Shown: one piece after another, positions 7,639 to 11,079 of the stretch
Layout of the letters: each line of letters begins with the position of its first letter
How positions within the stretch are numbered: the stretch's first letter is position 1
Assembly (NCBI GenBank): GCA_043824495.1
Contig: JBDRSV010000014.1
Location: 1 to 13,081, forward strand
Direction of reading: 5' to 3'
DNA length: 13,081 bases
DNA from: Candidatus Aenigmatarchaeota archaeon
Lineage (GTDB): Archaea; Aenigmatarchaeota; Aenigmatarchaeia; QMZP01
The notes under the pieces: model-generated
What the model was told of the DNA's origin: nothing
Database searches by the model: none
What the model saw: the letters and a program-made list of their open reading frames with translations, nothing else
Position numbers and translations under genes: made by a program

Positions 7639-8199
7639 ATGAATCTGAAAAAGATGGAAAAACATAATCCGCAAATGTGGAAAACTCTAATTTTCTTTTC
7701 TAGATTAGTTGTGTTATCTATACCAGTTTATCTTGTGATAACATTGGGTGTAGATTTAATTGTTCTCCAAAACACAGTTGCAGATAATTCTTATCTCATG
7801 TTTAAATATACTGGTTTTGCTGTTGCAAAAGAAGGTCCAGCTCTTACAGTTGGATTGGATGATGAAACTAGACAACCTTTCTATTTCATAATATCAGAAG
7901 ATTCTACTGGATGGAAATCTTTGTTATTTTTCGGAGCTCTACTCCTAGCAGTCCCAGAAATACACAATAGAAAAAGAATGTGGGGATTGATAATAGGATT
8001 ACCTGTAATATGGATAGGGAATTTGGTTCGCATATATGTAATAGTTATGGTGGAAAGGTCATATGGTTTCCAAGCAGCTGCGATAACACATGACTACTTA
8101 TGGCAAGTTGGTTTGATGATTTTAGTTTTAGCAACGTGGCTTTTGTGGTATGCAAAAGTTACAGAAAAATTCCAGAAGAAATCTGAGTTGAGAATTTAA
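7639..8199 (+). CDS. Archaeosortase/exosortase-family membrane protein, with Ser at the usual catalytic Cys position
   Basis: Short sortase topology with IISEDSTGW (Cys motif position), GNLVRI (N128/R131) and ITHD (H151) between TM helices. Confidence 0.75.
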   Translation: MNLKKMEKHNPQMWKTLIFFSRLVVLSIPVYLVITLGVDLIVLQNTVADNSYLMFKYTGFAVAKEGPALTVGLDDETRQPFYFIISEDSTGWKSLLFFGALLLAVPEIHNRKRMWGLIIGLPVIWIGNLVRIYVIVMVERSYGFQAAAITHDYLWQVGLMILVLATWLLWYAKVTEKFQKKSELRI

Positions 8200-8267: not shown

Positions 8268-8942
8268 ATGAATGTTGATTGGGTCATAACAATGGGATTG
8301 TTTATAGGATTTGTTGTATGGGCTCTTAGTTTTTACAGTTCTTTCTTTACAGGAGTTGCAGACATTTCATCATTTGCAGATATAACAAACGGAAGAATAC
8401 TAGAAAATCTAACAATAGATAGTTACGAAGTTCCTATAAGATACAATTCATCTAATATGACTTCTAATACTGTTTTACATTTTGATTTTGTGTGGCCGGA
8501 AGATACACAAAACACAACTAAAATTTTCTCCGGAACAACGGAAATCACATGTTCAATTTTAAATAATGTGATATATTTCGAAACAGATTTAACTAATCTT
8601 ACTTACAATTATTTCAAAATGACGTTTAGTAAGAAGAATGTGACAGCAAACTGTGCCAATTTTGCACCTGCACACAATAGAACGCAGATAGTTCCATGGG
8701 CAATGCAGAAGAAGAGCCTAATCTCCCAGAGTATCATAAACATGATGACGAATCTTACTTATGCTGATTATAAATCACAGTTGGGAATAACACGAGATTT
8801 TAGAATAGAGATAAACGAAAGTGGAACAGAAACTAATTATGGTTTACCTTTACCAAATAATAGAAATGTGTATTCAAGAGAAACAACAACACGATTAGAA
8901 GAAACCAATTCTGAAGTTGATATAACAGTTATGGTATGGTAA
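8268..8942 (+). CDS. Membrane-anchored secreted glycoprotein, possibly pilin/type IV filament-associated
   Basis: Single N-terminal hydrophobic helix (VDWVITMGLFIGFVVWALSFY), ~9 N-glycosylation sequons, C-terminal beta strand ending in W. In-frame stop just upstream confirms the ATG start. Confidence 0.6.
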   Translation: MNVDWVITMGLFIGFVVWALSFYSSFFTGVADISSFADITNGRILENLTIDSYEVPIRYNSSNMTSNTVLHFDFVWPEDTQNTTKIFSGTTEITCSILNNVIYFETDLTNLTYNYFKMTFSKKNVTANCANFAPAHNRTQIVPWAMQKKSLISQSIINMMTNLTYADYKSQLGITRDFRIEINESGTETNYGLPLPNNRNVYSRETTTRLEETNSEVDITVMVW

Positions 8943-8978
8943 TGGGCACATGGGGATTCGAACCCCAATTACAGCCTG
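8943..8978 (-). tRNA. Orphan tRNA 3' half (positions ~38-73), isotype undetermined
   Basis: Minus strand C-AGGCT-GTAAT-TGGGG-TTCGAAT-CCCCA-TGTGCCC-A: perfect T-arm, 5-nt variable loop, acceptor 3' strand and A73. No matching D-arm or anticodon 5' strand in the adjacent 30 nt. Confidence 0.7.
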
Positions 8979-9008
8979 TTTACAATCTCTGCTTATGTTG
9001 AGGGGTGA

Positions 9009-9081
9009 TAGGCGAGCCGGGACTTGAACCCGGGTCTCGACCTCCGCAGGGTCAAATTCTATCCAACTAAACTACTCGCCT
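9009..9081 (-). tRNA. tRNA-Arg(GCG), intronless, CCA not encoded
   Basis: AGGCGAG TA GTTT AGTTGGATA GAAT T TGACC CTGCGGA GGTCG AGAC CCGGG TTCAAGT CCCGG CTCGCCT A: full cloverleaf, anticodon GCG, G37, A20 (Arg identity element), A1-U72. Confidence 0.95.
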
Positions 9082-10168
9082 TTTTTAGTTTTTCCATTTT
9101 ACTTGGATTACTCGAGTTTATCTCTTTTATCCATTTATTAAGCAATGTCGGCCCGTTTAGGGAGATTGTCCATTTATATACGGTTGGGATAAAGCCAAGT
9201 TTCTTGAGCATGCTCGTTGTTTGATCGATAAGTTTTTTTGATTTTATACTTATAGTGATTATGGGGTATCTTTTTTTTCTCATATAAATACAGCCGTCCG
9301 TGTCAAAAAGCCCACGTATAAACGAACAATACACTTCTTTATTTTTTGTTTTGAGTATTGATTCTGGGACTTCGGTTCTTTCGACTTTGTTTCCATAAGG
9401 AAGGCCTATGATTTTGTTTTTAAATTCTCCTAGCGCTTTGGAATAAATTTCAAATCCAGTAACACTTGGTAATTTCATGATTTTAAGGTCTATATTATAT
9501 AATTTCTTATAGAGCGCGACTAAATATTCTGTTACATATTCTTCTTCTTTTTTGTTACATTTAACGGAAAAATAGTGCCTGCTTTTTGATAAACACCCGT
9601 CGCCTAAATGTATACCAATTTCTTCTGCAAGTTCTTTGGACATTCTTTTTGGAAAAATCATACCCTTTCTTTTATCTGCCCATGTAAATTTTATTTTTTT
9701 ACTATTGAAAAAAACCTTGTTGTTTGTGAAGAAAGGGGTGTTTTCCTTTTCTAATTCTCGAATCTTAAGATCCCTTTTCTTTAATTTACCATCTATGGTC
9801 ATTTTAATTAAGTCTGTTCTGTATTTTTCCCATAGATTAAATAAAGCTTTTTTCCGATCTGGTCTCTTTCTTCCTTTATTTTTCTTACCGCCGATTTTGC
9901 CGCCCTTTACACATCCCCAATTATCTCTCTTCTCGTCTAATATCCGAATTTCTAATTTCTTTGGAATTATGTGACCCGGAATATACCTCTCCCCATATTT
10001 CCATGTCTTAAGAGTTCTTATAGGTATTTTCATTTTATGGGAAAGATCCTTTAGATTTTTGGCCCCATGATGATCTTTCAAAAAATCAAAAACTTTCTCT
10101 CTTGATTCATTATTCAATAAAAATCTCATAATTAATAATTGGTCACTCATGTTAATAATACTATCCAT
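9059..10168 (-). mobile_element. Free-standing LAGLIDADG (DOD-type) homing endonuclease with N-terminal HTH
   Basis: Motif 1 LAEEIGIHLGDGCL and motif 2 FIRGLFDTDGCI, both with acidic catalytic residues; N-terminal HTH-like LKDLSHKMKIPIRTLKTWKYGERYIP; very basic; no intein splicing termini. Alternative starts at 10150 or 10129. Confidence 0.85.
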
Positions 10169-10182
10169 TATACTATAGGCCC
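10158..10182 (-). tRNA. Orphan tRNA 5' fragment (positions 1-25)
   Basis: GGGCCTA TA GTAT AATGGATA GTAT: acceptor 5' strand, U8-A9, 4-bp D-stem (G.U, U-A, A-U, U.G), A14, G18G19, A21. The sequence after it forms no anticodon arm. Confidence 0.55.
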
Positions 10183-11079
10183 TTAAACTAAAGCTCCAAT
10201 TATGAATGCAAGCAATCCTATGAACATCCCAATTTTTATTTTTTTACTTAATTTAGAATAATCTTTCTTTTTCTTCGCTTTTGGTATTCTGTATATTATA
10301 TACAGGAAAAGAATGTCAGTGATCCATACAATTCCAATGTAGCTCAAACCAACTAATCCAATCAAATACGGAACAGGAGAAACCAATATTGCTCCGACCA
10401 ATGCTATTTGGGCAGTTGATTTAGCTTTTCTTTCACTGTATTTAAGTTTAGTTCCATCTCTTGTAATTTTGAATCTCTCTGCAAGTTTATCCTTAACTTT
10501 TGAAGATGCTCTTTTTAAGAAACTTTTTGTGTCTCCTTCCAAATCTTCCAAATCTTTTACAATCTCTCTGGCAACGTTTGCTAACATTGCAAGAACGAAA
10601 AATATGAAAGGTAGAGTCATATTACCCATTGCAGCTCCACCAAACAAGAATGTAGATCCGACTAAGTAACTCACTGCGAGATTCCCTAAAAGAGTTTTGT
10701 TTTGCAGAGAACGTGCATAGATGATTAACAGGAATGAATTAAATGCAGCTATAATAAGTGGGTAAATTGTATTTAGAGTTAGAGCTAGAGTTATTCCAAT
10801 AAGGAATAATATTATAGAAAACCATAATCCAGCAGATTTTGAAATTCTATCTGTTGCTAGTGGTCTATTTCTTCTATTTGCTTTATCAGAATCTATGTCA
10901 TAATAATCGTTTATTACATTACCAGCACCTGTGATCAAAAAAGCAGCAATCATAGCTATGTAAATAGGAGTAGTTGTAACCAGTAATGTAATATCAGAAA
11001 CAAGTAATCCACCAATAAAAACAGCAAATATACTCATAACACAATTTACCGGTCTCAGTAATTTGATATAATCTAACAT
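10183..11079 (-). CDS. UbiA-family prenyltransferase, likely digeranylgeranylglyceryl phosphate (DGGGP) synthase
   Basis: LLRPVNC N-terminus, first Asp-rich motif NDYYDIDSDKANRRNRPL, LGNLAVSYL, second motif REIVKDLEDLEGD; multiple TM helices. Confidence 0.85.
   Translation of the reverse strand: MLDYIKLLRPVNCVMSIFAVFIGGLLVSDITLLVTTTPIYIAMIAAFLITGAGNVINDYYDIDSDKANRRNRPLATDRISKSAGLWFSIILFLIGITLALTLNTIYPLIIAAFNSFLLIIYARSLQNKTLLGNLAVSYLVGSTFLFGGAAMGNMTLPFIFFVLAMLANVAREIVKDLEDLEGDTKSFLKRASSKVKDKLAERFKITRDGTKLKYSERKAKSTAQIALVGAILVSPVPYLIGLVGLSYIGIVWITDILFLYIIYRIPKAKKKKDYSKLSKKIKIGMFIGLLAFIIGALV

Follow-up and report, generated by a model that had tools for sequence, protein, structure and literature searches.

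A tRNA-Arg(GCG) fragment beside a LAGLIDADG endonuclease-plus-tRNA cassette in an aenigmatarchaeal genome: probable remnant of a displaced resident gene

The locus and its two tRNA pieces

The window, that is, the whole stretch of DNA analysed here, is an entire contig of 13,081 bp from a 1.01-Mb assembly of ~35% G+C that is 80% complete and comprises 29 contigs. It contains the archaeal marker genes for aIF2-beta, EF-2 and S15, and the homologues of its local genes come from metagenome bins of Woese-, Pace- and Nanoarchaeota. Many tRNAs of this genome bear introns, some of them several, and few are detectable at all; for this reason a hidden partner of a split tRNA was a fair worry here.

The features of interest lie on the minus strand. 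A gene for a UbiA-family prenyltransferase (10183-11079) is followed, from the first base past its stop codon, by the 5' part of a tRNA (10157-10182). After a short junction (10130-10156) comes a gene for a double-motif LAGLIDADG endonuclease of 356 aa (9059-10129), whose end overlaps an intact tRNA-Arg(GCG) (9009-9081). A spacer of 30 nt (8979-9008), which the earlier note had called a leader, separates this tRNA from the 3' part of another (8943-8978). The 3' piece abuts the stop codon of a plus-strand ORF (8268-8942), the product of which is 224 aa long, has an N-terminal hydrophobic segment and many N-x-S/T sites, and gives no Pfam or NCBIfam match. Upstream of that ORF, also on the plus strand, an exosortase/archaeosortase-like protein is encoded (7639-8199; PF09721, 9e-10), and judging from these features the two products may be a sortase and its substrate. 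Within the endonuclease ORF, Rfam reports a weak match to CRISPR-DR63 on the minus strand (9389-9425; 19.3 bits compared with a gathering score of 37, E 4.4), which we take as chance.

The 3' piece corresponds to tRNA positions ~38-73. Read along the minus strand, it begins with the 3' strand of the anticodon stem (positions 38-43, at 8978-8972) and continues with a variable loop of 4 nt (8971-8968), a T-stem with 5/5 pairs (8967-8963 with 8955-8951) enclosing a TTCGAAT-type T-loop (8962-8956), the acceptor 3' strand TGTGCCC (8950-8944) and A73 (8943). Pairing and coordinates bear out the earlier note in describing the 3' part of a tRNA, complete with perfect T-arm and A73 and placed 30 nt past tRNA-Arg, and in stating that TGTGCCC is distinct from the acceptor strand of that neighbour. 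Its choice of a register with a 4-nt variable loop was equally sound: it agrees with the native tRNA-Arg(GCG) of the relatives G032 and G070, and with the variable loop of the native gene being 4 nt long, the register of the piece is settled. On its own the piece is too short for the Rfam tRNA model, which does not list it at E<=10; the case for it is comparative, 15 or 16 related loci having homologous stubs in this position.

The 5' piece sits 1.2 kb upstream of the 3' piece, in cis. From 10182 onwards it reads as an acceptor 5' strand GGGCCTA, U8, A9, a D-stem of 4 bp with an 8-nt D-loop that contains GG, and ends at position 26. The earlier note had remarked that a perfect GGGCACA partner for the 3' piece is absent from the window; this is correct, and according to a pattern search such a partner is absent from the genome too. 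What had been overlooked lies within the window itself (10182-10157): GGGCCTA and, after it, a D-arm. This GGGCCTA strand pairs with 8950-8944 at 6/7 positions, including one G-U pair and leaving one C-U mismatch. Pairing in the D-arm and the T-arm of the two pieces is still perfect. Between them lie the endonuclease ORF and the intact tRNA-Arg(GCG), and an exon with positions 27-37, that is, an anticodon-stem 5' strand with anticodon loop, was not found anywhere in 8979-10156. The end of the spacer together with the first two bases of the 3' piece (8985-8977) may derive by decay from the anticodon loop that the resident gene once had: compared by eye with native genes, TTG is kept, CGG has changed to TAA and two extra nucleotides are present. 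Across the related loci the spacer varies in length from 0 to ~45 nt.

At the junction between the 5' piece and the ORF, an AT-rich, TATA-like stretch (10160-10152) overlaps the end of the piece. Most relatives have a clear TTTAAATA-type box at this junction, ~25 nt ahead of the ATG, and we infer that the stretch serves as the promoter of the cassette. A second TATA-like box, ~30-35 nt upstream of the 5' stub, is kept in many loci.

The endonuclease cassette and its relatives

The endonuclease contains two LAGLIDADG motifs (PF14528, 1.3e-12) and an N-terminal extension of ~150 aa. Its start at 10129 is the third ATG of the ORF and was placed by alignment with 37 homologues. Its catalytic motifs, GDG and DTDG, show no variation among 38 homologues, and the nearest relatives of solved structure, at the level of the fold in the PDB, are intein and intron homing endonucleases. 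The protein has ~200 homologues, many of them 50-60% identical over the full length. The neighbouring tRNA-Arg(GCG), recognised by ARAGORN and scored at 59.8 bits by Rfam (9081-9009), is the only GCG isoacceptor found in the assembly, which is 80% complete.

Gene and tRNA are physically interlocked. The endonuclease ORF lacks a separate stop codon; the first 23 nt of tRNA-Arg (9059-9081, minus strand) supply both the stop and the seven codons ahead of it. An ASS(I/L)V-type C-terminus, encoded within tRNA-Arg, is conserved in the homologues. RNase P cleavage of a co-transcript of ORF and tRNA would yield an mRNA without a stop codon.

The arrangement recurs in other genomes. Among ~30 loci with full-length homologues (34-59% amino acid identity), tRNA-Arg(GCG) overlaps or follows the end of the ORF in nearly all. 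A 5' stub stands ahead of the ORF in 21 loci of Woese-, Nano- and Pacearchaeota type; it always ends at position 25/26 and is then followed by a TATA-like box. A 3' stub of varying length is kept in 15 or 16 of these 21 loci, leaving five or six without a usable one. In 12 loci its acceptor strand pairs 7/7 with that of the 5' stub, including U-A/C-G and A-U/G-C variants; the acceptor pairing of L052, assessed by eye, adds a further locus, and pairing is imperfect in L045, L058 and the window. The loss of stub sequence is polar: positions 27-53 go first, and the 5' stub and the extreme 3' end remain. In L052 the 3' stub still comprises positions 27-73, directly after the cassette tRNA, with the Arg anticodon loop visible; in L124 the same positions are present with a shortened anticodon loop. 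The stub of the window begins at ~38, compared with 49 or 54 in many other loci. No clear stubs were seen in the deeper-branching loci of Iainarchaeia type or in G055. One such locus (L065, Iainarchaeum) shows the cassette tRNA-Arg, then a tRNA-Leu, then a short tRNA-Leu-like fragment of T-arm and acceptor; ~100 nt upstream of its ORF there is a sequence like the first 10 nt of tRNA-Arg.

The distribution of the cassette is patchy. A full-length homologue was found in one other of 91 genomes of the order and in none of 46 other genomes of the family, and the flanking genes vary from locus to locus. Three cassette ORFs are broken by early stops, at codons 106 (L060), 6 (L062) and 139 (L063). 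The tRNA-Arg and the stubs remain, except that the contig of L063 ends before the tRNA. From these sequences, all three look like degenerating copies of the endonuclease gene. At the DNA level, 60 relatives proved too divergent for comparison, with matches confined to tRNA cores. Between cassette loci, the 5' stub is conserved at 81-92% in most of the closest pairs, compared with 36-68% at four-fold sites and ~50% in the outer flanks. Such conservation would result if a conserved tRNA gene had been the site of repeated, recent insertions, or if the stubs were under selection.

More distant LAGLIDADG relatives (L073-L123) lie on the same strand as, and directly upstream of, a tRNA gene, with one kind of tRNA per clade. 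These are tRNA-Arg(CCU) in eight loci, tRNA-His(GUG) in six and tRNA-Arg(UCG) in four, along with single cases of Ser, Thr and Val; a further 28 distant loci were counted as lacking a tRNA, possibly an overcount as ARAGORN misses intron-bearing tRNAs. With distant relatives standing ahead of other tRNAs, the principle of an endonuclease coupled to a tRNA seems general in DPANN archaea.

Which tRNA gene was disrupted can be read from the acceptor stems and the gene neighbourhood. The cassette tRNA of the window has an acceptor of the GGCGAG type, and GGCGAG/CTCGCC is common to the cassette tRNAs of 17 of 19 hosts. The stubs share their acceptor types with the native genes of cassette-free relatives, namely GGGCCTG, GCCCCTG or GGGCCCG. 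When the stubs of the window were scored against ~50 tRNAs, drawn from their own genome, the closed genome G032 of the same family and further relatives, tRNA-Arg(GCG) of G032 came out best with a combined score of 26, followed by a next best of 18, and the cassette tRNA reached 12. For the 5' stub alone, identity to this native gene is 21/26, again the best of the ~50, and four of the five differences are changes from G/C to A/T. The cassette tRNA is ~20/26 identical by eye, and because this margin is marginal, the assignment of the 5' stub to the resident gene leans on acceptor type and synteny. In three genomes of the family, G032, G070 and G024, the native tRNA-Arg(GCG) adjoins the UbiA gene, a conserved neighbour, and so do the stubs of the window. 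From acceptor types, scores and UbiA synteny, we therefore regard the stubs as the resident gene at its ancestral place. The native tRNA-Arg(GCG) of G070 (L126, ~444-330, minus strand) contains a T-loop intron of ~44 nt, which is why its BLAST match covers the first 56 nt only.

Split, duplicated or displaced

Taken together, the anatomy of the locus and its repeated occurrence, the constant point of insertion, the existence of two tRNA types, the synteny of the native gene and the patchy presence of the cassette make it likely that the 36-nt piece is the nonfunctional 3' remnant of the original tRNA-Arg(GCG), displaced by an endonuclease-plus-tRNA cassette. This cassette would consist of a promoter, the LAGLIDADG homing-endonuclease gene and a complete tRNA-Arg(GCG) of foreign type. 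It would have entered the resident gene after position 26, leaving the 5' stub at 10182-10157 and the 3' stub at 8978-8943; with tRNA sequence left on either side of the insert, the gene was split and not duplicated. In the proposed course of events, the enzyme would cut cassette-free tRNA-Arg(GCG) genes near position 26/27, and repair from a cassette-bearing copy would paste in the endonuclease gene along with its uncut tRNA, so that the essential tRNA would never be lost to the host. With the function now presumably supplied by the cassette tRNA, the stubs would be free to decay, as the missing anticodon arm and the one broken acceptor pair suggest. Cleavage activity, target and mobility of the endonuclease are predictions. 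Several features of a homing-endonuclease cassette with a replacement gene are present: the catalytic motifs are intact, one fixed position of one target gene is occupied in many hosts, the carried and the displaced copy belong to different lineages with the displaced copy being host-like, and presence is patchy and includes degenerate copies.

A rival reading is a working tRNA part, in one of two versions: a trans-spliced 3' half with the 30-nt leader as a guide, which the earlier note had favoured, or a 3' exon located past a 1.2-kb BHB intron of an outer tRNA, which would hold the endonuclease gene and tRNA-Arg. In Nanoarchaeum equitans, split tRNAs are encoded as separate halves that carry a complementary GC-rich extension and join at a BHB. 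The piece described here resembles such a half in beginning near position 38 with non-tRNA sequence in front; unlike it, it has no trans partner, complementary GC-rich extension, BHB or promoter of its own, and the isoacceptor is intact next door, only 30 nt away. Several features do speak for a working part: T-arm, D-arm and six of seven acceptor pairs are intact, the genome has tRNAs with several introns, an assembly that is 80% complete could miss a partner, and with the 5' junction a weak BHB is obtained in the register GTAA / ACA / GGC. Against these stands the search for a partner, in which no 5' half and no complement of the leader were found. Nothing tRNA-like turned up beside a leader complement in the 29 contigs of the 80% complete genome. 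Of ~70 sites able to pair with the acceptor strand (up to one mismatch, G-U allowed), none is followed by a D-arm; blastn-short of the 66 nt against the genome returned only chance-level matches of 10-14 nt; a scan of all contigs for acceptor and anticodon-stem partners, ranked by leader duplex energy, gave only the antisense of the locus itself; and the best non-self leader duplex has -23 kcal/mol, in non-tRNA contexts, with no trailer helix of 12-14 bp found. The only acceptor partner is the cis piece at 10182-10157, which lacks positions 27-37. The structural evidence points the same way. The duplex at the junction has -6.0 kcal/mol, compared with -5.9 +/- 2.2 for shuffles, and BHB-like matches over the 21 loci are near the shuffled level and share no common position. 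The GTAA/ACA/GGCTG register, which the earlier note had offered as a BHB, amounts to one weak match at that level, and the product of this sole candidate would also lack an anticodon arm, the absence of which already contradicts the reading. Joining the pieces in silico at 1564 pairs of junctions produced many molecules accepted by ARAGORN, with inconsistent anticodons and abnormal lengths; such joins demonstrate only that acceptor, D-arm and T-arm are present. Moreover, positions 27-53 are missing altogether in most related loci. A split tRNA for a missing isoacceptor was rejected, given that the piece derives from a tRNA-Arg(GCG) that is already intact 30 nt upstream, and so was a BHB intron carrying a homing endonuclease, with no BHB at the boundaries and no anticodon arm. 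We consider a working part in either version extremely improbable.

As its own alternative, the earlier note had proposed an att-like relic of an old integration, in other words a duplicate left by an element with a tyrosine integrase in a tRNA gene, for which the tRNA-Thr locus of Caldiarchaeum (PMC3293823) and elements of the pNOB8/SSV type are precedents. The idea of an integration relic came close; the att duplication by an integrase did not hold up, the locus having a 5' and a 3' stub on the two sides of the insert instead. Similar tRNA 3' fragments do seem to be present elsewhere in the genome, e.g. a tRNA-Ser-like end on contig C5. Yet the intact tRNA with an identical 3' 36 nt that such a duplication implies was not found, a pattern search with up to three mismatches returning only the fragment itself, and the sole gene between the pieces encodes the LAGLIDADG endonuclease and no integrase. 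A link to the integrase gene on contig C15 was also dismissed, as the 14-nt (E 0.17) and 11-nt matches are at chance level and lie in the catalytic domain. An att-type origin is, in our view, very unlikely. A third possibility accepts the split gene and holds that its stubs are kept by selection instead of merely decaying, either as DNA homology arms for recombination of the cassette into tRNA-Arg(GCG) genes of new hosts, or as a tRNA-like clamp of acceptor, D-arm and T-arm that closes the ends of a long transcript with the endonuclease mRNA and tRNA-Arg. Conservation far above that of synonymous sites and flanks speaks for selection, as do the 7/7 acceptor pairing in 12 loci with its U-A/C-G and A-U/G-C variants, the polar loss that spares the 5' stub and the extreme 3' end, and the persistence in many loci of a TATA-like box ahead of the 5' stub. 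All covariation can, however, go back to the time before the gene lost its function. The loci do not preserve any single RNA structure: many have lost the 5' strand of the T-stem, and a usable 3' stub is missing from five or six of the 21. The acceptor of the window contains its C-U mismatch, and for homologous recombination, arms with lengths of 26 and 20-45 nt are short. Selection on the stubs accordingly appears to us an unlikely explanation.

The remnant of a displaced resident gene is the reading that we retain for the 36-nt piece. Two other orphan tRNA 3' ends were observed in this genome, a tRNA-Ser(GGA)-like one on contig C5 near 52182, 2.6 kb downstream of that gene, and a tRNA-Gln(CUG)-like one on contig C24 near 102268. 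By their sequence, both look like classical integration duplicates.

Known systems and implications

Introns with a BHB in archaeal rRNA genes, of the I-DmoI type, encode LAGLIDADG homing endonucleases. The cassette shares with them a double-motif LAGLIDADG gene at a fixed position of an archaeal stable-RNA gene. Unlike these introns, it has no BHB at its boundaries, its flanks cannot be joined into a working RNA, and it brings a replacement gene of its own in place of splicing. The logic of the cassette matches that of the mobile endonuclease ORFs (mORFs) of fungal mitochondria, first seen in atp6 of Allomyces macrogynus (Paquin et al. 1994, as described in PMC3630166). Among their targets are atp6 and cox2; the mORF supplies a foreign end for the gene that it enters, and the native one stays behind as a relic (PMC3630166). 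Here, too, an endonuclease gene enters a gene that the host cannot do without, the part it displaces is supplied as a foreign copy, and the native part persists downstream as an unexpressed relic that is nearer to close relatives than is the inserted copy. The differences concern target and anatomy: the target is a tRNA gene of an archaeal chromosome and the whole gene is replaced instead of a C-terminal part, relics of both the 5' and the 3' end are present, the LAGLIDADG protein has an extra N-terminal domain, and the ORF reads into the replacement tRNA.

Similarly, the SegB protein of phage T4 is a free-standing GIY-YIG homing endonuclease of a tRNA gene cluster that recognises tRNA gene sequence (PMC2330249). 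It spreads along with neighbouring tRNA genes and replaces the markers of the recipient, a behaviour that the cassette would share. SegB belongs to a different enzyme family and to a phage, the text consulted describes no split resident gene or stubs for it, and for the enzyme considered here cleavage is a prediction. For the tRNA-Thr(GGU) locus of Caldiarchaeum subterraneum, it has been proposed that fragmented tRNA genes may arise in such a way (Sugahara et al. 2012, PMC3293823). There, too, an intact tRNA and a fragment of its isoacceptor stand 1-2 kb apart, and a mobile element occupies the space between them; that element encodes a recombinase and leaves a 5' fragment only, whereas the present one encodes an endonuclease and leaves both ends. 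In the literature searched, we found no description of an archaeal LAGLIDADG gene that travels with a complete replacement tRNA. As for the fragment, it is ordinary debris; the endonuclease cassette is new as a form of gene replacement by homing endonucleases.

Orphan tRNA halves in tiny archaeal genomes invite readings as split or trans-spliced tRNAs, and the present locus offers a concrete and recurrent origin for them. For annotation this means that stubs of this kind should not be labelled split tRNAs. An endonuclease tied to one isoacceptor and equipped with a spare tRNA would destroy the resident gene at no cost to the host, and the enzymes of such cassettes would be new sequence-specific nucleases with tRNA genes as targets. 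The findings bear on the origin of fragmented tRNA genes and on the horizontal replacement of tRNA genes. In its most far-reaching form, which we hold to be doubtful at present, the stubs would be conserved recombination arms or an RNA clamp of an active cassette that travels widely among DPANN archaea and overwrites tRNA-Arg(GCG). If this were true, gene replacement by endonucleases would rank as a general source of orphan tRNA halves, and split or oddly interrupted tRNA genes would perhaps come from it as well.
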